Assembly: GCA_029932425.1 (NCBI GenBank)
Contig: JAOZQC010000001.1
Span: 691-24,976 of the forward strand
Reading direction: 5' to 3'
Source: Planctomycetota bacterium
Lineage (GTDB): Bacteria; Planctomycetota; JAJSAM01
DNA length: 24,286 nucleotides
In this document: positions 791 to 23,566 of the stretch, piece after piece
Layout: the number at the start of each line of letters is the position of its first letter
How positions within the stretch are numbered: the stretch's first letter is position 1
Made by a program: the position numbers and the translations under genes
Notes under the pieces: generated by a model
What the model saw: only the letters and a program-made list of their open reading frames with translations
What the model was told of the DNA's origin: nothing
Database searches by the model: none

Positions 791-1524
791 TCCCCCTCCT
801 CCGCCGTCCGGAGGCGGGACCGTGCCCCCAGGGCTGCGGCCACGAGCCAGGCGCCGGGGGCGGCGCCCAGGAAGAAGTCGCGCCACCGGTCGCCGCCCCG
901 GGCGAAGAGAGGGAGGGCGAGAAGCAGGACGAGCAGCACGTGGGTGCGGCGGATCCTCACGCCCTCGGGAAACGGGATCCACCCGGCGAGGACCACGCTG
1001 AGGAGCCCCAGGGCGGCGCCCCCCACCACGTCGGAGGGGAAGTGCTTGCCCAGCCCGATCCGGGTGAAGGCGGCGAGGGCGACGACGAGCATGAGGGGGA
1101 CCCAGAGCCGGAGGCGGCGCCCCGCCAGGGAGGCCATGACGGCCATCGTCCCCGCGGTATGTCCGCTGGGGAAGGAATCGAGGTCCGCGCGGTTGGGACG
1201 GGCGCGAAGGATCCCTTCCTTCAGCAGGTATCCGAGGAGGCCCGCGAGGACGAGCGCCAGGAGCGCCCGGGCCGCGGTGCGACCCGACCCCCCCGCGGCG
1301 TAGACGGCGAGCACGATCCAGGCCAGGGCGGCCCCGTCGAACACGGCGGTGAGGAAGAGGAGCAGCTCCCCCCCGGGCGTATCCTTCTTCCAGCGGTGGG
1401 CGTCGAGCCACGTCCCCGCCGACACCCGGTGCTCGAAGGCGAAGAGGAGCCCGCAGGCGGCCGCGAGGACGGCCGCCGCGGCCAGGATGCGTCCCGGGGG
1501 GATCGCCGGGTGCGGGCGCTTCAC
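787..1524 (-). CDS. PAP2-family membrane phosphatase
   Basis: Motifs K(EGILRA)RP, SFPSGHT and TRIGLGKHFPSDV; several TM segments; GGAGG upstream of GTG. Confidence 0.88.
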   Translation of the reverse strand: MKRPHPAIPPGRILAAAAVLAAACGLLFAFEHRVSAGTWLDAHRWKKDTPGGELLLFLTAVFDGAALAWIVLAVYAAGGSGRTAARALLALVLAGLLGYLLKEGILRARPNRADLDSFPSGHTAGTMAVMASLAGRRLRLWVPLMLVVALAAFTRIGLGKHFPSDVVGGAALGLLSVVLAGWIPFPEGVRIRRTHVLLVLLLALPLFARGGDRWRDFFLGAAPGAWLVAAALGARSRLRTAEEGE

Positions 1525-1716
1525 GCCCCCCTCCGGATGCCGGACGTCCGGTCTTCCGTTCGGGGGAGGGGCGGGCGGGATCGTTTCGACATCACGATCG
1601 GAGGAGGATACGACGTTCCCTCGCCAAACGGAACGGACGCCCGGGGAGCGACGCTCCCCGCCGGAGACGCGCCGCGTTCCCGGCGCCGCCCCGGTGGGAA
1701 ACCCGCCGGTTGGATC

Positions 1717-2400
1717 CTACTTCCGCGGCAAGAAGAGATTCTGGGCAAAGAGCAGGATAAGACCGACCGCCACCGGCAAGAGGACCGCATAGAGCAATGT
1801 CTTCACCGACTTGAACTCGGTACTCAACGCCGCAACGTTCTTGGTGAGGGCGCGAACGCCCTCACCGAGGCTCGTCAAACTCTTCGTCTCCAGAGAGTAA
1901 AGGTAGTCCTTCATCTGGCGAGGAAGTTCGCCGCGGATGTATTCGGGCCTCTCGCCGAACACCTTTCTTGCCGGGACCGCCAGCCGGAAGAACTGGATGG
2001 AACACAGGTCGCCCTTGTACTCGATGACGTATTTCCTCGGAGAGGAGTTGTAAAGGCCGAGGATGAGATGCCCTTTGAAACCCGGATCGATCTGCATTCC
2101 GGCCTGGAGGATCACGCCCTTGGTCGTGAGATACGTCCGGGGACCGATGTTCACCACGAAGTTCTGGGGAATCTCGAAGTACTCGTCCGACACGGTGACC
2201 GCGAAATCGCCGGGAGGTAAGGCAATCGCCGTTTCTTTCGAGAGGTCGAGCACGCGGTCGTGGCCGGAGATCAGTAGCCTTTTCCCGACCCGGAGGTCGT
2301 AGCTTGCCCCCTGCAACCGAGCAGGATCGAACGGTCGAACGATGAGGCCCGATTCCTCGTCCTCGATCATGGCCTGGATCTCTGAGTCAGCCAGCAACAC
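1717..2400 (-). CDS. dCTP deaminase/dUTPase-fold protein with a C-terminal helical segment and transmembrane helix
   Basis: LLADSEI...GASYDLRVG, LPPGDFAVTVSDEYFEIP and QIDPGFKGHL motifs; hydrophobic tail LLYAVLLPVAVGLILLFAQNLF. Start placed at GTG 2400 (GGAGG about 10 nt upstream) rather than 2463. Confidence 0.8.
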   Translation of the reverse strand: MLLADSEIQAMIEDEESGLIVRPFDPARLQGASYDLRVGKRLLISGHDRVLDLSKETAIALPPGDFAVTVSDEYFEIPQNFVVNIGPRTYLTTKGVILQAGMQIDPGFKGHLILGLYNSSPRKYVIEYKGDLCSIQFFRLAVPARKVFGERPEYIRGELPRQMKDYLYSLETKSLTSLGEGVRALTKNVAALSTEFKSVKTLLYAVLLPVAVGLILLFAQNLFLPRK

Positions 2401-2453
2401 CTTCTGAATCCTCCCGCTGCAGGGGTCGAGGGCTCTTCCTGCCGGACGTGGGA

Positions 2454-2462
2454 AGCATACCA
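2454..2462 (-). promoter_or_regulatory. Candidate extended -10 promoter (TGgTATGCT) for the dcd-like gene
   Basis: Reverse complement of 2454-2462 reads TGGTATGCT (TGn-TANNNT), about 55 nt upstream of the start. Confidence 0.4.
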
Positions 2463-2718
2463 TGATGTGGGGACAAAGCCCTCGGGAGGTTCCTGCGGCT
2501 TCCAGGATCGGGTTTACGCCGATCCCCCTCCGAGCGGTTTCCCACCCCTTGTCCGGCCGCCGCGCGGTGCCGGCTTGAGGCGCGCGGCCCGGGTTTCGAG
2601 ATGATGGGGTGGGCTTGAGGACCTTGTTTGCCGGACCGAGAGGACGGGCCTACGAGCTTCTCCCCAGACCCTCGGCGGCGGAGCGGCAAGGCCCGGCGCG
2701 TCCCCGGGCGGCGGTTCC

Positions 2719-3948
2719 TCACTCCGTCGTCAGCTCCCGGATGAGCTTCTCGTCCAGGACGTAGCGTTCCGTCCGGAAGGTCAGGCCCTTCTTGCCGAAG
2801 GGGCCGATGCGGTCCCGTTCCACGTAGTAGTCGTGGCCCCGCCGGACCGCGATGGTGGTGAGATCCACGAAGGCGCGGCGGAGGAGGATGCCGAGGTTCT
2901 TCCGGGCGCGTTCCACCGGGCCCCAGGCGCGGAGGACCTCCGCCTGGCGGAGGAACGGGCGGCCCGGGGCGGCCACGGGGCGGACGGCGTTCGCGGCGAG
3001 GAGCTCGGGGGAGATGGGGGGGCGTTCGCTGGGGGGGGTGAGAAGCCAGGTGAGCTTGAAGCGCGCTCTCCGGATCTTCCGGAGGATCGAGTCGCCGAAG
3101 GGGGAGCGGATGTCCCGGAGGAAGTCGCTCTGCTTCGGGGTGAGCCAGGTGGTGGTGACGAGGCGGTAGTCGAGGTGGTAGGTGCGGACGGGGAGCTCCC
3201 GCGCGTCGAGGGCGCGGAGGTCGGTCTGCCGGAAGTCCCGGGGGGAGAAGATCGTGGTGGTGGCGTAGCGCTTCGTCTCGTTGCCCCGCCGCACCAGGAG
3301 GACGAGCAGGCGGTCCGCGAAGGCCGTGGGGCCCTGCCGGAGCCGGATGAGACGCAGCTCGTCGTCCTCGGGCGGAGCCGTGATCTCCGCGATGAACTTC
3401 ACCTCGTCTCCGTAGCGGATCTCCAGCATCCCCGCGTACCGGAAGGTCCACGCCGAGAGGCTTCCCCCGTGCCCGTGCTCCCGCACCAGCCGGGCGTACC
3501 GGGGGTCGTCCGGGGCCGCGGCCAGCGGCGCGTGGCCCACGTGCTCGTAGGCCCGGAACCTCGCCACCCGGGCGCCGTGGAGGACGGGGTAGCGGGAGAA
3601 ACGCACGTCGAAATCGATGGAGGGCGGGTTCCGGAAGAATCCCGGGTCGCGCCGGGGAGGGACGGGCTCGTGCTCCGGGGCCGGCGTCTTCGCGGCGGGC
3701 TTCGCCTCCGGGGGAGGGGAGGGCTTCCGCTCCGGGGGAGGGGCCGTACGCGTGACGGACCTCACGCGGGACCGGGGAATCCGCATCTCCATCCCGTCGC
3801 CCAGGCGGACCACCACCTCCTTCTCCGTCTCGGAGACCACCCGGCCCGTGATCCGCCCCCCGTTCACGAGGACGATCTCGTCCCCCCGGGCGGGGGCGGC
3901 GGGGACGGCGAACAGGAGCAGCAGGATCAGGACCGCGCTTCTCGTCAC
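2719..3948 (-). CDS. Secreted hypothetical protein (signal peptide, small N-terminal beta domain, Pro-rich linker, unknown C-terminal domain)
   Basis: Signal-like MTRSAVLILLLLFAVPAAPARG; DEIVLVNGGRITGRVVSETEKEVVV module of a kind I associate with PVC proteins; GC3-rich codons; GGAGG 5 nt before GTG 3948. Confidence 0.72.
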   Translation of the reverse strand: MTRSAVLILLLLFAVPAAPARGDEIVLVNGGRITGRVVSETEKEVVVRLGDGMEMRIPRSRVRSVTRTAPPPERKPSPPPEAKPAAKTPAPEHEPVPPRRDPGFFRNPPSIDFDVRFSRYPVLHGARVARFRAYEHVGHAPLAAAPDDPRYARLVREHGHGGSLSAWTFRYAGMLEIRYGDEVKFIAEITAPPEDDELRLIRLRQGPTAFADRLLVLLVRRGNETKRYATTTIFSPRDFRQTDLRALDARELPVRTYHLDYRLVTTTWLTPKQSDFLRDIRSPFGDSILRKIRRARFKLTWLLTPPSERPPISPELLAANAVRPVAAPGRPFLRQAEVLRAWGPVERARKNLGILLRRAFVDLTTIAVRRGHDYYVERDRIGPFGKKGLTFRTERYVLDEKLIRELTTE

Positions 3949-4057
3949 GGGCACCTCCGGTTCCCTATCGGTTGCGGACGCGGGTTCGCTCGCGCGGAAA
4001 GCGGGGGATTCCGCTCCCGTGCCGCCGCGCGCAGAGTGTGCGGGGGTCCCCGATCCG

Positions 4058-4063
4058 TACTAT
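4058..4063 (+). promoter_or_regulatory. Candidate -10 box (TACTAT) 9 nt upstream of the transketolase ATG
   Basis: TANNNT in GC-rich surroundings; no SD motif between the box and ATG 4073. Confidence 0.45.
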
Positions 4064-4072
4064 CCTGCTCCC

Positions 4073-6646
4073 ATGGCAAAGGTCGGAGGCTCTCCCCCGG
4101 TCACGGTGCACGGCCCGGCCGCGGGCCCGGCGCCGCCCGCCCCCGCGGCCTCCCTCTCCCCCCTCGAGCGGGAGAGGTTCGAGGACACGGCCTTCCTCAC
4201 CGCCATGATCCTGGTCCTCCTGGGGAACTACCGGGAATCCGGTCACTACGGGGGACCCCTGGCGGTCACCCCCCTGAACGTGGCCCTGCATCTCGGAGGA
4301 CCCGGGCGGGGAGGTCTCGCCTGGGACTTCCGCGAGCCGAAGCATCCCCTCGCGGACCGCTTCCTCCTGGCCGGGGGCCACACCGTCCCCTCCTGCTACG
4401 CCCTCTGGATGGTCCTCTACGAGGCCCTCCGCGCCGAGCGGGAGGCCACCGGGGACGAGTCCTTCTCCTTCGATCCCCGGGTGGGCGTGCTCGCCGTCGA
4501 CGCCCTGGGGTTCCGGAGGGGGGCGCGGGCGCTGGCCACGCTCCTCGAGGACCACGGCCTGGCCGGCCATCCCCTCTTCGCGGAGGCCCGGCTCCGGGGA
4601 ATCCGGGCGCTCTCCGGGCATGCGGAGTCCACCGACGTGACGATCGCGGGGAACGGGGGCCCCTCGGGGGTGGCCGCCGCCGCCGCGCCCGGTCTGGCCC
4701 TCTTCCTGGAGCGGGCGGGGCTGCCGGCCGCCCGGAAGGTCCTGGCCCTGGAGGGCGAGTTCGCCATGACCGAGGGCCATGCCCAGGAGATGAAGACGGC
4801 GGCGCTCGCCCAGCAGGTGGGGAAGCGCCTGCGGATCCTCCTCTCCTGGAACAACGCGGGCATCGACGATGCCCTGGTGGGAGGGGTGGTGCGGGAGGAG
4901 TACCGGGGATACGACCTGGCCCGCCAGTGGACCTCCTACGGGTGGAACGTCCTCTCCGTGAAGGACGGGAACGCCTTTCCCGACCTGTTCGCCGCGCTCG
5001 GGCTCATGGAGGACTGGGACCCCGGGGACCGGCGGCCCATGATCCTCCTGGCCCCCACGCTGAAGGGGTGGTGGCCGGCCGCCGCCGGGGGCCGGATCCC
5101 GGGCGACGGGGCGCAGCTCACGGGGGCTCCCAGCCATCCCTGGTCCTTCCCCGTGAACTCCCCCTACGTCTCGGCGCTGGCCCGGACCTTCGAGGAGAGG
5201 TACGGCGTCACCTTCGCGGGGATCCACGACGGCCCCCCCGCGACCCCCGCGGACCGCCTGGTGGAGCTGAAGATGAACGTCGACACGGCCCTGTCCGTGC
5301 TCGAGCGGCGCCCGGGGCTTCGCTCCTGGATCGCGGGCCGGCTCCGGGAGATCGCCCGGTCCTTCGAGCACCGGACCGTGGTGGACATCCCCGGGGATCG
5401 CGACCCCTTCCGGGACGAGCGCCTCCGGCCGGAGCGCCTGCCCCCCGGGCCGATCCGGATCCGGGCCCGGGACGCCCGGACCGGCCGCCGCGTGGACCGG
5501 GAGGTGCGCCTCTTCCGGGAGCCGGGGGAGATGGCGGGAGCCCGCCGCGCGATCTCGGAGGCGGGCCTGTGGCTGAACCACGTCACGGGAGGGAGGTTCT
5601 TCACCGCGGCCGCCGACCTCTCCTCCTCGATCAACGTGGAGGGAGCGCACCTCTTCGGGCACTACGATCCCGTGGAGAACCCCGCGGGCACGCGGCTCAA
5701 GGCCGCCATCCAGGAGGCGGGGAACACGGCCCTCCTGGCCGGGCTCGCCGCCGGATCGGTGTCCCCGGACCCGGATCTCCACGCCGGATTCTGGGGGCTC
5801 TCGGGGAGCTACGGGGCGTTCACCCCGCTCATGTACACCCCCGCGCGCGTCTTCAGCCAGCAGAACCAGGACAGCCCCCACCGGCTCGGGGTGCTCGTGG
5901 TGCTGGCCGCCCACTCCGGGCCCGAGACCGCGGCCGACGCCCGGACCCACTTCGGCGTCTTCGCCCCGCGGATCTGGACGCTCTTCCCCCGGGGGCAGGT
6001 GGTGGACCTCCACTTCTGGGACTACAACGACGTGGCCCCGGCGTTCTTCGCCGCCGTCTCCCTGGCGGCCCGGAGGAAGGAAACGGGGATCATCGCCCTC
6101 CACGCGGCGCGTCCGGACCAGCCGGTGGCGGACCGGAGCGGCTTCGCCGACCCCGACCTCCGGGCCGCGGCCCGGGGCCTCTACCTGATCCGGGAAGCCG
6201 AATCGGGGAAGCCCCCCGGCGGCACCGTGCTCGTGCAGGGGGCGAGCGCCGCCGCGAACCTCGTCTCCGTCCTCCCGGAGCTCGCGGCCCGGGGGGCGAA
6301 CGTCCGCGTGGCGGCGGTGGTGAGCGAGGAGCTCTTCGCCGTCCAGCCCCCCTCCTACCGGGAGCGCGTGCTCCCGGAGGCGGCGCGCTACGACGCCATG
6401 GTGATCTCCACCATGACGAAGCGGGTCCCTCCGGTGGCGAACCTGGGGCCGCTCACCGAGGAGTACTCCCTCTACGCGGACTCCGACGACCGCTGGCGGA
6501 CGGGGGGGACGGAGGAGGACGTGATCCGGGAGGCGGGGCTGGACCCGGAGTCGATCCGGGAGGCGGTGCTCCGCTTCGCGAGGGACCGGGCGGCGCGGCT
6601 CGCCCGGCAGCGCGCCGCCCTGGCGGGAGGAGACCGGGGTGCCTGA
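4073..6646 (+). CDS. tkt: Large divergent transketolase-family ThDP enzyme (857 aa)
   Basis: SGHYGG, DRFLLAGGH, LSGHAE, GEFAMTEG...WNN (ThDP motif variant), AAIQEA, SYGAF and HSGPETAADARTH match transketolase landmarks. The track's 3617 start is an extension overlapping the divergent gene. Confidence 0.8.
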   Translation: MAKVGGSPPVTVHGPAAGPAPPAPAASLSPLERERFEDTAFLTAMILVLLGNYRESGHYGGPLAVTPLNVALHLGGPGRGGLAWDFREPKHPLADRFLLAGGHTVPSCYALWMVLYEALRAEREATGDESFSFDPRVGVLAVDALGFRRGARALATLLEDHGLAGHPLFAEARLRGIRALSGHAESTDVTIAGNGGPSGVAAAAAPGLALFLERAGLPAARKVLALEGEFAMTEGHAQEMKTAALAQQVGKRLRILLSWNNAGIDDALVGGVVREEYRGYDLARQWTSYGWNVLSVKDGNAFPDLFAALGLMEDWDPGDRRPMILLAPTLKGWWPAAAGGRIPGDGAQLTGAPSHPWSFPVNSPYVSALARTFEERYGVTFAGIHDGPPATPADRLVELKMNVDTALSVLERRPGLRSWIAGRLREIARSFEHRTVVDIPGDRDPFRDERLRPERLPPGPIRIRARDARTGRRVDREVRLFREPGEMAGARRAISEAGLWLNHVTGGRFFTAAADLSSSINVEGAHLFGHYDPVENPAGTRLKAAIQEAGNTALLAGLAAGSVSPDPDLHAGFWGLSGSYGAFTPLMYTPARVFSQQNQDSPHRLGVLVVLAAHSGPETAADARTHFGVFAPRIWTLFPRGQVVDLHFWDYNDVAPAFFAAVSLAARRKETGIIALHAARPDQPVADRSGFADPDLRAAARGLYLIREAESGKPPGGTVLVQGASAAANLVSVLPELAARGANVRVAAVVSEELFAVQPPSYRERVLPEAARYDAMVISTMTKRVPPVANLGPLTEEYSLYADSDDRWRTGGTEEDVIREAGLDPESIREAVLRFARDRAARLARQRAALAGGDRGA

Positions 6647-10444: not shown

Positions 10445-10800
10445 TCAGGTCGCGGAGTCGGGGCGCCAGTGGCGGGCGAGCTCGGAAGCGTACCGCCGCC
10501 CCAGCTCCTCCGCGTGATCCGCGAGCCACTCCGTGAGCCGCGTGGGGCAGGTGGGGGCCCCCGCGAGACGAGGAGGCCGGCGGCGAGCCCCCGGATCTCC
10601 GCCCGCGTGAGCACCACGTCGCCGAGGAACCGGCCGGCCAGGAAGCCGGCGAGATGGACCAGGGGGCCCGGCATGGGGAGGACCGGGGTGCGCGCGCCCA
10701 GGGCGTCGCGGATCGTGCGCACCAGGTCCGCGAAGGAGAAGACCTCCGGCCCCACCGCGTCCCGCACGCGGTTCTCCGCGCCGTCGATCTCCCGGACGGG
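10445..10800 (-). pseudogene. 5'-truncated, frameshifted remnant of an NDUFA9-like/atypical SDR NAD(P)-binding protein
   Basis: ENRVRDAVGPEVFSFADLVRTIRDALG...GDVVLTRAEIRGLAAGLLVSRGPP continues after a frame change as TCPTRLTEWLADHAEELGRRYASELARHW. This matches the C-terminus of that family as I recall it. No Rossmann N-terminus is present. Confidence 0.7.
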
Positions 10801-10830
10801 GATTGTCCCGGCGGCGGGGGGGCCATCCGG

Positions 10831-10836
10831 TACATT
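10831..10836 (+). promoter_or_regulatory. Candidate -10 box (TACATT) 7 nt upstream of the HAD ATG
   Basis: TANNNT directly before ATG 10844; no SD. Confidence 0.4.
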
Positions 10837-10843
10837 CACGGGG

Positions 10844-11641
10844 ATGGGAGACGACGGCCGAGACGAGCCTCGAGGCGACCACCGGAACGGGCGGATCCGG
10901 GCCCTCGATCCGCCGCCCCGCGGGGTGCTCTTCGACTACGGGAACACCCTGATTCCCTTCGGCCGGAGGGAGATGGACCGGATCGGCGACGCCCTCGTCC
11001 GCTTCGTGCGGGAGAAGCTCCCGGACCGGGCGCCCCTCGAGATCCGGGACGCCCTCACGGAGACCTGGGTGGACCTCCACCGGGAGCGGATCACGACCCT
11101 CCGGGAATCGGACACACGCGACGTGATCCGGGGGACCTTCGCCCGGCTCGGTGCCCCGGCGCCGGGCCCCGCCTTCGAGGAGGAGGGTCTCCGGGTCATC
11201 GTCCGGGCCTTCACGTCGGCGTCCCGCCTCGGGGAGGGCTCGCTGACCGTGCTCTCCCGGCTCCGGGAGCGCGGCTTCCGCCTGGGGCTCCTTTCGAACT
11301 ACTCGCTGGGAGAGGCGATCCGGGCGTCGCTGGCGAAGCTCGACCTCCATCGGTGGTTCGACGCGGTGGTGGTGTCCGGCGACCTGGGATGGGTGAAGCC
11401 GCACCCGGAGGTCTTCCGGGAGGCGGCCCGCCGGCTCGGACTGCCCCCGGCGGAGATCCTCTACGTGGGGGACAACCCCCGGGCGGACATCGCGGGGGCG
11501 AAGGCGGCGGGGATGCGCGCGGCCCACGTCACCCAGCACCTCGACGGCGCCTACCACTTCGAGCATCCCGACGAGAATGCGGCGGAGGTGGCGCCGGATC
11601 TCGTCTGCGAGCGGCTCGCCGACCTCATCGCGGAGGACTGA
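10844..11641 (+). CDS. HAD-superfamily hydrolase (subfamily IA)
   Basis: Motif I VLFDYGNTL, motif II LLSNY, motif III KPHPEVF and motif IV VGDNPRADIAGAKAAGM. Confidence 0.9.
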   Translation: MGDDGRDEPRGDHRNGRIRALDPPPRGVLFDYGNTLIPFGRREMDRIGDALVRFVREKLPDRAPLEIRDALTETWVDLHRERITTLRESDTRDVIRGTFARLGAPAPGPAFEEEGLRVIVRAFTSASRLGEGSLTVLSRLRERGFRLGLLSNYSLGEAIRASLAKLDLHRWFDAVVVSGDLGWVKPHPEVFREAARRLGLPPAEILYVGDNPRADIAGAKAAGMRAAHVTQHLDGAYHFEHPDENAAEVAPDLVCERLADLIAED

Positions 11642-11643
11642 CC

Positions 11644-14340
11644 ATGGCCGAACCGGAGCGCCTCTTCCTGCTCGACGGCACGGCCCTCGCCTACCGCTCC
11701 TACTACGCCTTCATCCGCAACCCCCTCTTCGACGCCAAGGGCCGGAACGTCTCCGCGGTCTACGGGTTCGTGGGGACCCTCTTCCGGCTCCTGGAGACGG
11801 AGAAGCCCGAGCACCTGGCGGTGGCCTTCGACCCGCCCGGACCCACGTTCCGGCACGAGCGGTATCCGGAGTACAAGGCCACGCGGGAGAAGATGCCGGA
11901 CGAGATGGTGGATTCCCTCCCCGGCATCCGGGCCGCGGTGGAAGGGTTCCGGATCCCCGTCTTCGAGGTGCCGGGCTTCGAGGCGGACGACGTGCTCGGC
12001 ACCCTCGCGCGCCGGGCGGAGGAGAAGGGGATCGAGGTCTGGCTCGTCACCGGGGACAAGGACCTCATGCAGCTCGTGACGGACCGGGTCCGGATCTACA
12101 ACATCCTGAAGGCGGGGGTGGAGCTGGAGAGGATCGGCCCGGAGGAGGTGGTGGAGAAGCTCGGGGTGCCCCCCGAGCGGGTCGTCGACTACCTGGGCCT
12201 CGTGGGGGACGCCTCGGACAACATTCCCGGGGTGCCCGGCATCGGCCCGAAGACGGCCCGGGCGCTGCTGGCGACCTGGGGCTCCATGGACGCGCTGCTG
12301 GAGAGGGCGGAGGAGGTGAAGGGGAAGCGGGCCCGGGAGAACCTGGTGCGCTACCGGGACCAGGCCCTCCTCTCGCGGGAGCTGGCCACGATCCGGACCG
12401 ACGTCCCCCTCGACTTCGACTGGGAAGCCCTCCGCGTGGGGGAGAAGGACGACCGGAAGCTCATCGCTCTCTTCCGGGACTACCAGTTCAACAGCTTCCT
12501 CCTGAAGCTCGGCACCGGAAGGGACGAGGGCGAGGCCACCTGCCGCACCGTGCAGAGCGAGGCGGAGCTCGAGGACCTCCTGGCCCGCCTCCGGAGCGTC
12601 CCCCGGTTCGTGGTGGACACGGAGACCACCGCCCTCGACCCCATGCGGGCCGACCTCGTGGGCCTCTCCTTCTCCACGGCTCCGAAGGAGGCCTGGTACG
12701 TCCCCCTGAACCTCTCCCCCTCCTACCTGCCCCGGGAGGAGATCCTCGACCGCCTCCGCCCCGTGCTCGAGGATCCGGGGCTGGGCAAGGCGGGGCAGAA
12801 CATCAAGTACGACATGAAGGTGCTCGCCCGCGCGGGGATCCGGCTCGAGGGGATCACCTTCGACACCATGGTGGCCTCGTTCCTCCTGGAGCCCGGGAGC
12901 CGCCAGCACAACCTCGACACCCTGGCCCTCGTCCACCTCGACTTCCGGAAGATCCCCACCTCCGCGATCATCGGGAAGGGCAAGGACGAGGTGACGATGG
13001 CGGACGTCCCCGTGGAGAAGGTGGCGCCCTACGCCTGCGAGGACGCGGACATCACCATGCGTCTCGTGGAGCGGTTCACCCCCCGGCTCGCCGAGGCCGG
13101 TCTCGACCGCCTGAACGACGAGGTGGAGGTGCCCCTCATCTCCGTGCTCGCCCGCATGGAGATGCACGGCGTCCTGGTGGATACCGGCCGGCTCCGGGCC
13201 ATGTCCGAGCGGATGGCGGCGGAGATCGAGCGCCTCGAGGCCGAGATCCGGCGGGAGGCCGGGTGCGACTTCAACGTGAGCTCGCCCCCGCAGCTCGGGG
13301 AGGTCCTCTTCGAGAAGCTGCGGATCCACGAGGGTCGTCGCGGGAAGCCGAAGCGGACGAAGACCCGGCAGTACGCCACGGACCAGGAGACGCTCGCCCG
13401 CTACGCCGACCACCCGATCATCCGGAAGATCCTCGACTACCGGGAGTACGTGAAGCTGAAGGGAACCTACGTGGACTCGCTCCCCGCCCTGGTGAACCCC
13501 GAGACGGGGCGGATCCACGCCTCCTACCACCAGACGCAGGCGGTGACGGGGCGCCTCTCCGCGTCCGATCCGAACCTCCAGAACATCCCCGTGCGGACGG
13601 AGGTGGGACGGGAGATCCGCACCGCCTTCGTGGCCCCCGAGGGCCGCCGGCTCCTCTCCGCCGACTACAGCCAGATCGAGCTCCGGGTCATGGCCCATCT
13701 CTCCGGGGACGAGACGCTCATCGCCGCCTTCCGGGAGGGGAAGGACATCCATACCGACACCGCGGCGCGGATCTTCGGCGTACCCTCCGGGGAGGTGGAC
13801 GCCACCCTGCGCAACCGCGCCAAGGCCATCAACTTCGGGATCATCTACGGGATGGGCCCCCGCCGGCTCGCCTCCACCACCGGCATCTCGATGGAGGAGG
13901 CGACGGAGTTCATCCAGGCCTACTTCCGGACCTACCCCGGCGTCCGGGCCTTCCAGGAGGAGCAGAAACGGCGGGCCCGGGAGGAAGGCTACGTCCAGAC
14001 CCTGCTCGGCCGGCGCCGCTGGATCCGGGACGAGATCCTCTCGCGCGACCGCCGGGTCCAGGTGAACGCCGAGAACGTGGCCATCAACACGCCGATCCAG
14101 GGCACGGCCGCGGACATGATCAAGGTGGCGATGGTGCGGATCGACCGCCGGCTCCTCGACGAGGGGCTCCGGGCCCGCATGATCATCCAGGTCCACGACG
14201 AGCTGGTCCTGGAGGTTCCGGAGGCGGAGATGGCGGCGGTGCGGGAGATCGTGCGGGCGGAGATGGAGGGGGCGATCGAGCTGGCCGTCCCCGTCCTGGT
14301 GGACCTGGGCGAGGGCGCGAACTGGCTCGAAGCCCACTGA
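11644..14340 (+). CDS. polA: DNA polymerase I (898 aa) with 5'-3' exonuclease, 3'-5' exonuclease and polymerase domains
   Basis: LLDGTALAYRSYYA, EADDVLGT, GDASDNIPGVPGIGPKTA; ExoI DTETT, ExoII NIKYD, ExoIII YACED; GRLSASDPNLQNIP, ADYSQIELR, AKAINFGIIYG, QVHDELV. Confidence 0.98.
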   Translation: MAEPERLFLLDGTALAYRSYYAFIRNPLFDAKGRNVSAVYGFVGTLFRLLETEKPEHLAVAFDPPGPTFRHERYPEYKATREKMPDEMVDSLPGIRAAVEGFRIPVFEVPGFEADDVLGTLARRAEEKGIEVWLVTGDKDLMQLVTDRVRIYNILKAGVELERIGPEEVVEKLGVPPERVVDYLGLVGDASDNIPGVPGIGPKTARALLATWGSMDALLERAEEVKGKRARENLVRYRDQALLSRELATIRTDVPLDFDWEALRVGEKDDRKLIALFRDYQFNSFLLKLGTGRDEGEATCRTVQSEAELEDLLARLRSVPRFVVDTETTALDPMRADLVGLSFSTAPKEAWYVPLNLSPSYLPREEILDRLRPVLEDPGLGKAGQNIKYDMKVLARAGIRLEGITFDTMVASFLLEPGSRQHNLDTLALVHLDFRKIPTSAIIGKGKDEVTMADVPVEKVAPYACEDADITMRLVERFTPRLAEAGLDRLNDEVEVPLISVLARMEMHGVLVDTGRLRAMSERMAAEIERLEAEIRREAGCDFNVSSPPQLGEVLFEKLRIHEGRRGKPKRTKTRQYATDQETLARYADHPIIRKILDYREYVKLKGTYVDSLPALVNPETGRIHASYHQTQAVTGRLSASDPNLQNIPVRTEVGREIRTAFVAPEGRRLLSADYSQIELRVMAHLSGDETLIAAFREGKDIHTDTAARIFGVPSGEVDATLRNRAKAINFGIIYGMGPRRLASTTGISMEEATEFIQAYFRTYPGVRAFQEEQKRRAREEGYVQTLLGRRRWIRDEILSRDRRVQVNAENVAINTPIQGTAADMIKVAMVRIDRRLLDEGLRARMIIQVHDELVLEVPEAEMAAVREIVRAEMEGAIELAVPVLVDLGEGANWLEAH

Positions 14341-23413: not shown

Positions 23414-23566
23414 CCCGCGTTTCTCACCGGCGCGCGGGCGCCGGCGGCGAGCCGCTTCCGGAAACGGGTTTCCCTCGCCGGAGCGAGGGGCCCGCGGCCC
23501 GCCTCCGGCCGGAGCCGGGCGCCACGGGATCCGCCGGGAACCGTCCGTTCCGGCGGGGAATGCGGG
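23414..23566 (-). repeat. Dispersed intergenic repeat family, copy E (153 bp, internally shortened)
   Basis: Starts immediately after TGA (23567-23569). 5' CCGCATTCCCCGCCGGAACGGACGGTTCCCGGCGGATCCCG; 3' CCCGCGCGCCGGTGAGAAACGCGGG is nearly identical to the 3' end of copy B. Confidence 0.75.

Follow-up and report, generated by a model that had tools for sequence, protein, structure and literature searches.

A membrane-anchored, motif-eroded protein of the Dcd/dUTPase fold in a hydrothermal-vent Planctomycetota genome and its possible role in conflicts with phages or mobile DNA

The Dcd/dUTPase fold belongs to textbook soluble nucleotide metabolism, and to our knowledge all Dcd and Dut proteins form trimers. 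Dcd of Escherichia coli uses Ser111 and Arg115 of the motif RSSLAR together with Glu138 of IVLEFYN for the deamination of dCTP, and in Dcd/Dut enzymes a C-terminal arm closes over the bound nucleotide. Here we describe a gene for a protein of this fold in a Planctomycetota bacterium (assembly GCA_029932425.1), located on the minus strand at positions 1717 to 2400 of a stretch of 24,286 nucleotides (contig JAOZQC010000001.1, positions 691 to 24,976), which is called the window throughout. The product of 227 amino acids (aa) consists of a Dcd/dUTPase-fold head, a conserved heptad-repeat stalk and a single C-terminal membrane helix. We read it, with a probability of roughly 0.4, as an accessory, membrane-tethered pyrophosphatase of the dUTPase type, or binder, of deoxynucleoside triphosphates (dNTPs) that would serve the cell in conflicts with phages or mobile DNA.

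Profile models, an alignment to E. coli Dcd chains by HMMER and structure comparison by Foldseek agree on the nature of the head. The positions concerned are given below; counts for the family refer to 152 aligned sequences, and the codons of the RTYLTT, Asp105 and Gly115 sites were read by hand.

1951..2400, minus strand: Dcd/dUTPase-fold head, residues 1-150 (Pfam PF22769, E 4.2e-19; AlphaFold predicted local distance difference test (pLDDT) >90; Foldseek against 9ln0 and 8y1w, E 1e-14, TM-score 0.87-0.88 by target)
2122..2139, minus strand: R88-T-Y-L-T-T93, aligned by HMMER on R110-S-S-L-A-R115 of Dcd (Arg at the site in 94 of 152 family sequences; KTYLTK in the near clade)
2086..2088, minus strand: Asp105 of the conserved IDPGF, a dUTPase motif-3-like Asp, on IDPGW of E. 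coli Dcd (invariant in alignment A1, D in 142 of 152)
2056..2058, minus strand: Gly115 in the place of the deaminase Glu138, aligned by HMMER (family column G82, S19, T15, A9 of 152)

The head passes the Pfam DCD model (PF22769) with 69.6 bits at a cut-off of 27. It stays below the cut-offs of the dCTP deaminase equivalog TIGR02274 (79.3 bits, cut-off 92.8), of the Pfam dUTPase model PF00692 (13.5 bits, cut-off 22) and of TIGR00576 for dut (22.6 bits, cut-off 102.55). A previous interpretation, here called the sequence-only reading, had aligned RTYLTT and LILGLYN by eye with the motifs of Dcd and had seen that the Asp of IDPGF is kept. The HMMER alignment reproduces this placement, with L-I-L-G-L-Y-N on I-V-L-E138-F-Y-N. 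Accordingly, Ser111, Ser112, Arg115 and Glu138 of Dcd are replaced by Thr89, Tyr, Thr93 and Gly115, and the equivalent of Arg110 is kept; the HMMER alignment thus restores neither Arg115 nor Glu138. Because the deaminase Glu is missing, the protein is, as judged from its sequence, not a dCTP deaminase. The earlier statement that it is no working deaminase holds, in line with the score below the TIGR02274 cut-off and with the family column for Glu138, where Glu is not among the four commonest residues.

In the PDB the protein is matched best by Dcd-type dUTPases of archaea, namely P45 of Pyrococcus (9ln0/9ln3) and the enzyme of Thermococcus pacificus (8y1w), with a sequence E-value of 4e-18 and about 31% identity. 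They are also the closest folds, and their chains carry Met at the position of Glu138 (LTLMLYN) and an intact RSSLAR. A membrane-anchored dUTPase, which had been offered as one alternative by the sequence-only reading, would thus fit the nearest solved structures.

The AlphaFold model of the window protein (mean pLDDT 88.7) shows a β-barrel head comprising residues 1-150, short helices at residues 152-156 and 161-171, and one long helix from residue 175 to 223. The part behind the head is divided as follows.

1879..1950, minus strand: C-terminal arm and linker helices, residues 151-174 (RGELPRQMKDYLYSLETK), comprising the two short helices of the model; nearly invariant in the near clade, with the YxGxYQ of the wider family missing
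1804..1878, minus strand: coiled-coil stalk, residues 175-199, with hydrophobic residues at 3-4 spacing; heptad positions conserved in the family, part of the single long helix of the model
1732..1794, minus strand: C-terminal transmembrane helix, residues 203-223, followed by only four residues (Kyte-Doolittle window peak 2.52; alike in about 70% of the 150 best representatives of the family)

Positions 175, 178, 182, 185, 189, 192, 196 and 199 are occupied by L, I, V or F in the query and across the family, and a coiled-coil stalk is predicted because hydrophobic residues recur with this spacing in both. The acidic N-terminus lacks a signal sequence. Since, in addition, the hydrophobic helix lies at the C-terminus with four residues behind it, a cytoplasmic head and a tail anchor are expected. 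The sequence-only reading had likewise seen an amphipathic segment and one transmembrane helix at the C-terminus.

The window protein belongs to a large family. A word-indexed search gave 47 relatives, most of which are metagenomic with a length of 224-242 aa, and all full-length relatives among them share the linker KDYLYSLETKSLTxLGEDVRALT and the membrane helix. An exhaustive search of 1.84 billion cluster representatives yielded 3495 matches with E ≤1e-3, 464 with E ≤1e-10 and 13 with E ≤1e-30. The best 150 representatives are mostly 210-260 aa long and align over the whole query, and about 70% of them have head, stalk and anchor; a C-terminal hydrophobic helix is present in 104 of the 152 aligned members. 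The pocket is close to invariant in the alignment (Y34, D35, E73, G95, D105-P106-G107, N118). Both R/K-S/T-x-x-x-R and the C-arm motif Y-x-G-x-Y-Q are retained in 31 membrane-anchored members, and 53 members, including the query, retain neither. The near clade has KTYLTKKG but more distant members from Planctomycetota have RSSLARKG, so the erosion of motifs in the clade of the query looks stepwise.

Four representatives of about 450 aa (P0077, P0081, P0096, P0138) contain a tandem of Dcd/dUTPase-like domains and end in two membrane helices. A search for family variants with a C-terminal winged helix gave only a sub-threshold MarR match. Pfam, NCBIfam and PADLOC hold no model dedicated to the membrane-anchored, Glu-less Dcd-like family, and no description of a membrane-anchored Dcd-like protein was found in full-text literature searches. 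The public annotation of relatives as dCTP deaminase is not supported. Fold and enzymology are well known; the present case adds a solitary, motif-eroded clade, located among housekeeping genes in a hydrothermal-vent genome of high GC.

A dNTP pyrophosphatase or binder is preferred because the nearest structures are dUTPases and because sister branches partner nucleotide enzymes. In a distant branch (loci L081, L082, L086 and L087, e.g. L087:5427-10573) the Dcd-like domain and the C-terminal transmembrane helix are fused to a guanylate-kinase-like domain in proteins of about 400 aa. At these four loci, from Dyadobacter, Bacteroidota, Dehalococcoidia and ANME-1 genomes, the fusion closes a conserved operon that also encodes an N6/N4 DNA methylase, an HD-domain protein and an FAD-dependent-like protein. 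Furthermore, a separate guanylate-kinase-like gene paired with a Dcd-like transmembrane gene recurs on three contigs. The preferred reading also draws on single loci elsewhere in the family: one such kinase-like gene upstream of a member inside an island with an MmeI-type methylase and a PLD-helicase, plasmid modules with uracil-DNA glycosylase, MazG and helix-turn-helix and ImmA/IrrE proteins, and one member that overlaps an AbiEi_2/NTP_transf_8 pair by 44 nucleotides.

According to this proposal the head would form the usual trimer, and the three stalks would form a coiled coil that continues into a three-helix membrane bundle, so that the head would be held a few nanometres below the membrane. 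The conserved pocket (Y34-D35, D105-P-G, N118) probably still binds a pyrimidine deoxynucleotide. Thus dUTP, dCTP or a modified pyrimidine dNTP may be removed or sequestered during a conflict with a phage or with mobile DNA, and not for housekeeping metabolism. With RSSxxR and YxGxYQ eroded in the clade of the query, the activity may be weak there or its specificity changed.

The accessory character of the gene is indicated by its distribution. A scan of named genomes with a profile of alignment A1 found family members in Planctomycetota, Acidobacteriota, Chloroflexota, Verrucomicrobiota, Actinomycetota, Bacillota, Pseudomonadota and Nitrospinota, among other bacteria, and in archaea including Methanocellales, Halobacteriales, Asgard archaea, Nitrosotalea and ANME-1. 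Even the best of these matches is only 44% identical to the query. The gene was also sought in the 40 nearest genomes, of which 3 belong to the same family, 13 to the same order and 24 to the same phylum, and nothing but one weak partial match turned up. Five chromosome-scale genomes with a family member each also have a DCD match with a canonical score (116-129 bits), and three of the five also have a canonical Dut. In the genome of the window, which is 79% complete, the query is the only PF22769 match and no PF00692 match was found; the three genomes from its family, which are 88-93% complete, likewise gave no match to the DCD or the dUTPase family. Since neither was found in these three relatives, the lineage seems to do without both, and the query gene seems to be an addition and not an ancestral enzyme.

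The base composition points in the same direction. The G+C content (GC) of the gene is 0.583 compared to a window mean of 0.726 (standard deviation 0.037, z -3.8), the gene is the lowest-GC stretch of 684 nucleotides within the window, and its GC at third codon positions is 0.79 compared to 0.94-0.95 in three neighbouring genes. The low GC that had been noticed in sampled lines is therefore a property of the whole gene, and its composition is foreign to the window. Homologs with 65-74% identity lie on contigs with a flank GC of 0.37, 0.40 and 0.61, compared to 0.73 around the query gene, and in 21 of 23 loci the GC of the gene is below that of its flanks.

The patchy occurrence in phyla, the failure to find the gene in 40 relatives, the coexistence with Dcd and Dut and the GC below that of the flanks speak for an accessory gene that was acquired horizontally, and against a housekeeping gene inherited vertically. 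Vertical inheritance of the homologs, which the sequence-only reading had named as something that would count against it, is thus not what was found, and the family appears from its sequences to move between distant phyla.

An origin from phages was considered and rejected, as 50,697 phage records hold only canonical Dcd-like matches that cover at most 76% of the query. Synteny was uninformative about an insertion site: a homolog of the neighbouring 411-aa protein was found only in G003, a genome of the same family, where it is split over contig ends and has unrelated neighbours. Flanking repeats were rejected as the boundary of an element, since the inverted repeats at 1630-1647 and 2701-2718, like other such pairs, do not exceed what is expected by chance at this GC (blastn E 0.15-0.26). 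The segment 1657-1705, just downstream of the gene, resembles a dispersed-repeat copy at 23465-23512 (73% over 49 nucleotides, E 0.04, not significant alone) and may be a degenerate repeat fragment.

The extent of the gene and its flanking signals are as follows.

1717..2400, minus strand: coding sequence, 227 aa and stop, GTG start (open reading frame (ORF) list and translation; database gene call P0002, 227 aa, 100% identical)
2410..2415, minus strand: Shine-Dalgarno-like GGGAGG, 9 nucleotides before the GTG (direct reading of the sequence)
2454..2462, minus strand: weak extended -10 candidate TGgTATGCT, the promoter proposed in the sequence-only reading (read from the sequence; absent from the output of the consensus scan)

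The longest ORF starts with ATG at 2463 and encodes 248 aa, and the public gene call starts with GTG at 2400. Because all homologs start at the same MLLxD as the product of the GTG and because GGGAGG lies upstream of it, the start at 2400 and the earlier assignment of the gene to 1717-2400 are right. Its earlier description as a stand-alone unit with an extended -10 element of its own applies in part. The intergenic gaps are wide (192 nucleotides downstream, 318 upstream), with both neighbours on the same strand as the gene, but for the promoter there is only TGgTATGCT, and a consensus promoter scan around the gene returned no site. In a terminator test the downstream hairpin was no better than shuffled sequences (z -1.0).

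The assembly across the gene is sound. A contig of 2313 bases from the source run, a hydrothermal-vent metagenome, spans 1095-3407 with zero differences. A run from another study contains identical pieces, one of which (1476-1763) bridges the 3′ junction of the gene. No variant with an empty site was seen in other samples, and the contigs of the second study have the gene at the same place. In one contig of a second run of the source sample, position 2218 inside the gene is C instead of T, a strain variant of higher depth.

Several observations weigh against a role of the protein in nucleotide-pool conflicts. The window is a housekeeping region with genes for a PMT_2 glycosyltransferase, a PAP2 protein, a secreted 411-aa protein, a transketolase-like protein, a SpoU methylase, DNA polymerase I (PolA) and an amino-acid permease; no integrase, transposase or defence gene was found in it. 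PADLOC-DB 2.0 gave no meaningful match for the window protein, only PDC-M15B at E 0.038. Among 66 non-redundant loci no neighbour family occurs in more than four and no conserved partner was found, so the form of about 220 aa stands alone; a ThyX-type partner is likewise absent beside the query gene and its near relatives. The neighbourhood of the family was further described by 150 genes within two positions of a family gene at 42 loci, with 150 genes at least five positions away at the same loci as control. The near genes are mostly housekeeping (aconitase, SecA, LpxK, gyrase B and others), and the control genes have no fewer PADLOC matches, including two strong ones to GajA. The phage records hold no full-length relative. 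Furthermore, the clade of the query has lost the second Arg of RSSxxR and the C-arm YxGxYQ, which 31 transmembrane-anchored relatives keep, and the case for catalysis is weaker because of this. Finally, nothing accounts for a membrane anchor on an enzyme that cleans the nucleotide pool.

A different and rather unlikely explanation, which is the best placed of the alternatives, is a pseudoenzyme sensor joined to a membrane effector. The head would only bind a nucleotide that emerges or vanishes in the course of infection, ordering of the arm over the pocket would be passed to the coiled coil, and three helices would disturb the membrane and stop growth. Several features of the clade suit this idea, as the catalytic-type motifs are eroded and the pocket residues kept, the arm and linker (KDYLYSLETKSLT) are among its best-conserved parts, and the C-terminal arm runs straight into the stalk. 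The stand-alone gene and its horizontal spread also agree with it, as do defence or toxin-antitoxin neighbours at some loci. The near-gene set contains a few toxin genes of the HepT/MNT or PIN kind and a single gene each for a type I methylase and an HKD-Snf2 helicase. At L006:2886-5651 (also L007 and L008) the near-clade gene P0005 overlaps the start of an AbiEi_2/NTP_transf_8 (AbiE-like) pair by 44 nucleotides on the same strand, and a gene for a Peptidase_C14 caspase-like protein follows the pair. At L012:798-8753 genes for an MmeI-type methyltransferase and a PLD-Snf2 helicase precede the gene P0045, which has a guanylate-kinase-like gene of 179 aa 44 nucleotides upstream.

Nevertheless, a single tail-anchor helix with 2-6 external residues would be a minimal effector. 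The 31 members with complete enzyme-like motifs have the same anchor, and because so many members keep both, the anchor is independent of the loss of catalysis. Enrichment of defence genes, which the sequence-only reading had proposed to look for around homologs, was not seen in the comparison within the same loci, as PADLOC matches are no denser within two positions than at least five positions away, and this comparison gives no sign of tight coupling of the family to defence genes. We consider it clearly improbable that the solitary clade is a single-gene abortive-infection switch, in which a trimeric pseudoenzyme would sense a phage-specific or depleted pyrimidine dNTP and three tail-anchor helices would permeabilise the membrane by way of the C-terminal arm and the coiled coil. 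For the abortive-infection or defence reading proposed earlier there are thus a few loci with toxin-antitoxin or restriction neighbours on one side, and on the other the missing PADLOC match, the housekeeping window and the lack of a partner in 66 loci. Overall, the observation behind the earlier reading is confirmed. Of its interpretation the loss of deaminase function and the membrane anchor stand, the gene looks horizontally acquired, and the abortive-infection part has no direct support.

It is also improbable, and more so than the switch, that the protein serves a selfish or mobile element in a function unrelated to defence, either as a nucleotide-pool factor for the replication or DNA modification of the element, or as a moonlighting regulator, for which phage Dut proteins that bind repressors are a model. 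On three alphaproteobacterial plasmids (L103:3380-8693, L104:5167-10843, L105:4209-9898) the Dcd-like transmembrane gene adjoins a conserved module with a small protein, a helix-turn-helix (HTH) protein, an ImmA/IrrE peptidase, a C1 peptidase and a hypothetical protein, with a uracil-DNA glycosylase (UDG) in two of the three. The module sometimes gains a MazG or a 'DNA base hypermodification' gene, and replication genes lie nearby. Its gene order differs between genera, which suggests that the genes may be functionally linked. IS1-type transposases are located directly upstream of a family member in two loci, and other branches adjoin kinases and methylases. On the other hand, no mobile-element gene was found near the query in the window, and the 50,697 phage records contain no full-length relatives. 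The plasmid module was also rejected as a general partner, since profiles of it (HTH-ImmA/IrrE, C1 peptidase, UDG) matched nothing beside the loci nearer to the query.

A housekeeping dUTPase, which as the only Dcd/Dut-superfamily gene of the organism would keep dUTP out of DNA with an incidental membrane tether, is highly improbable, as the sole PF22769 match without a PF00692 match in the incomplete genome and the true dUTPases among the nearest structures are opposed by a lineage that appears to manage without either family, by a gene of foreign composition that was not found in 40 relatives, by the coexistence of the family with canonical Dcd and Dut elsewhere and by the loss of the RSSxxR and C-arm motifs.

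Two other ORFs of the window are unusual in length. The PolA ORF (10654-14340, plus strand) has 1228 aa and its 5′-3′ exonuclease domain begins at residue 336, so that there is either an N-terminal extension of about 335 aa or an over-long ORF call in high-GC DNA. The ORF at 3617-6646 (plus strand) has 1009 aa with weak matches to transketolase N- and C-domains (E ~1e-5) and represents an unusually long, divergent transketolase-like protein.

The Dcd/dUTPase fold with deamination lost and a conserved coiled coil as membrane tie defines a large family for which literature searches gave no experimental description. Should this family police pyrimidine dNTP pools in conflicts with phages or plasmids, nucleotide-based immunity would gain a new fold; should the degenerate clade be a sensor, it would offer a simple model of signalling from ligand to membrane. 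Under either reading the automatic annotation 'dCTP deaminase' would be wrong for these genes.

Compared to known systems, the window protein shares the Pfam family and fold, the equivalent of Arg110 and the Asp of IDPG with Dcd and Dcd-Dut enzymes (E. coli 1xs1; Mycobacterium tuberculosis 2qlp/2qxx; Methanocaldococcus jannaschii 1ogh), but it differs from them by Gly for Glu138, Thr for Arg115 and Thr/Tyr for Ser111/Ser112, by a score below the TIGR02274 cut-off and by its membrane anchor. With the trimeric dUTPases (PF00692, TIGR00576), whose cut-offs it does not reach, it has the motif-3 Asp (D105, IDPGF) in common. The transmembrane effectors of CBASS (cyclic-oligonucleotide-based anti-phage signalling system) and Pycsar (pyrimidine cyclase system for anti-phage resistance) likewise join a soluble nucleotide-binding domain to membrane helices and are encoded by horizontally mobile genes. 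They answer a signal that a partner enzyme produces, and at least two transmembrane helices are usual among them, whereas the window protein has no partner gene and only one tail-anchor helix.

Among the enzymes of anti-phage nucleotide depletion are a 'dCTP deaminase' of kinase domain and zinc cytidine deaminase, dGTPase genes (bioRxiv 10.1101/2021.04.26.441389) and DcdV (10.1101/2021.03.31.437871). Their reported kinase-plus-deaminase layout is resembled by the guanylate-kinase-like domain that is fused to or precedes some relatives of the window protein. These enzymes may be functional analogs, being encoded by single accessory genes that act on dNTP pools; their zinc deaminase fold, however, is unrelated to the Dcd/Dut β-barrel, and they are set apart from the window protein by its lack of a PADLOC match. 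The archaeal Dcd-type dUTPases are soluble proteins of about 155 aa with RSSLAR intact, whereas the window protein has 227 aa, RTYLTT, a stalk and a membrane helix, and is without YxGxYQ in the arm, a motif retained in much of the wider family with a membrane anchor. With these archaeal enzymes (P45, T. pacificus) it shares the β-barrel head, the YDLRVG and DPG motifs and the lack of Glu at the deaminase position.

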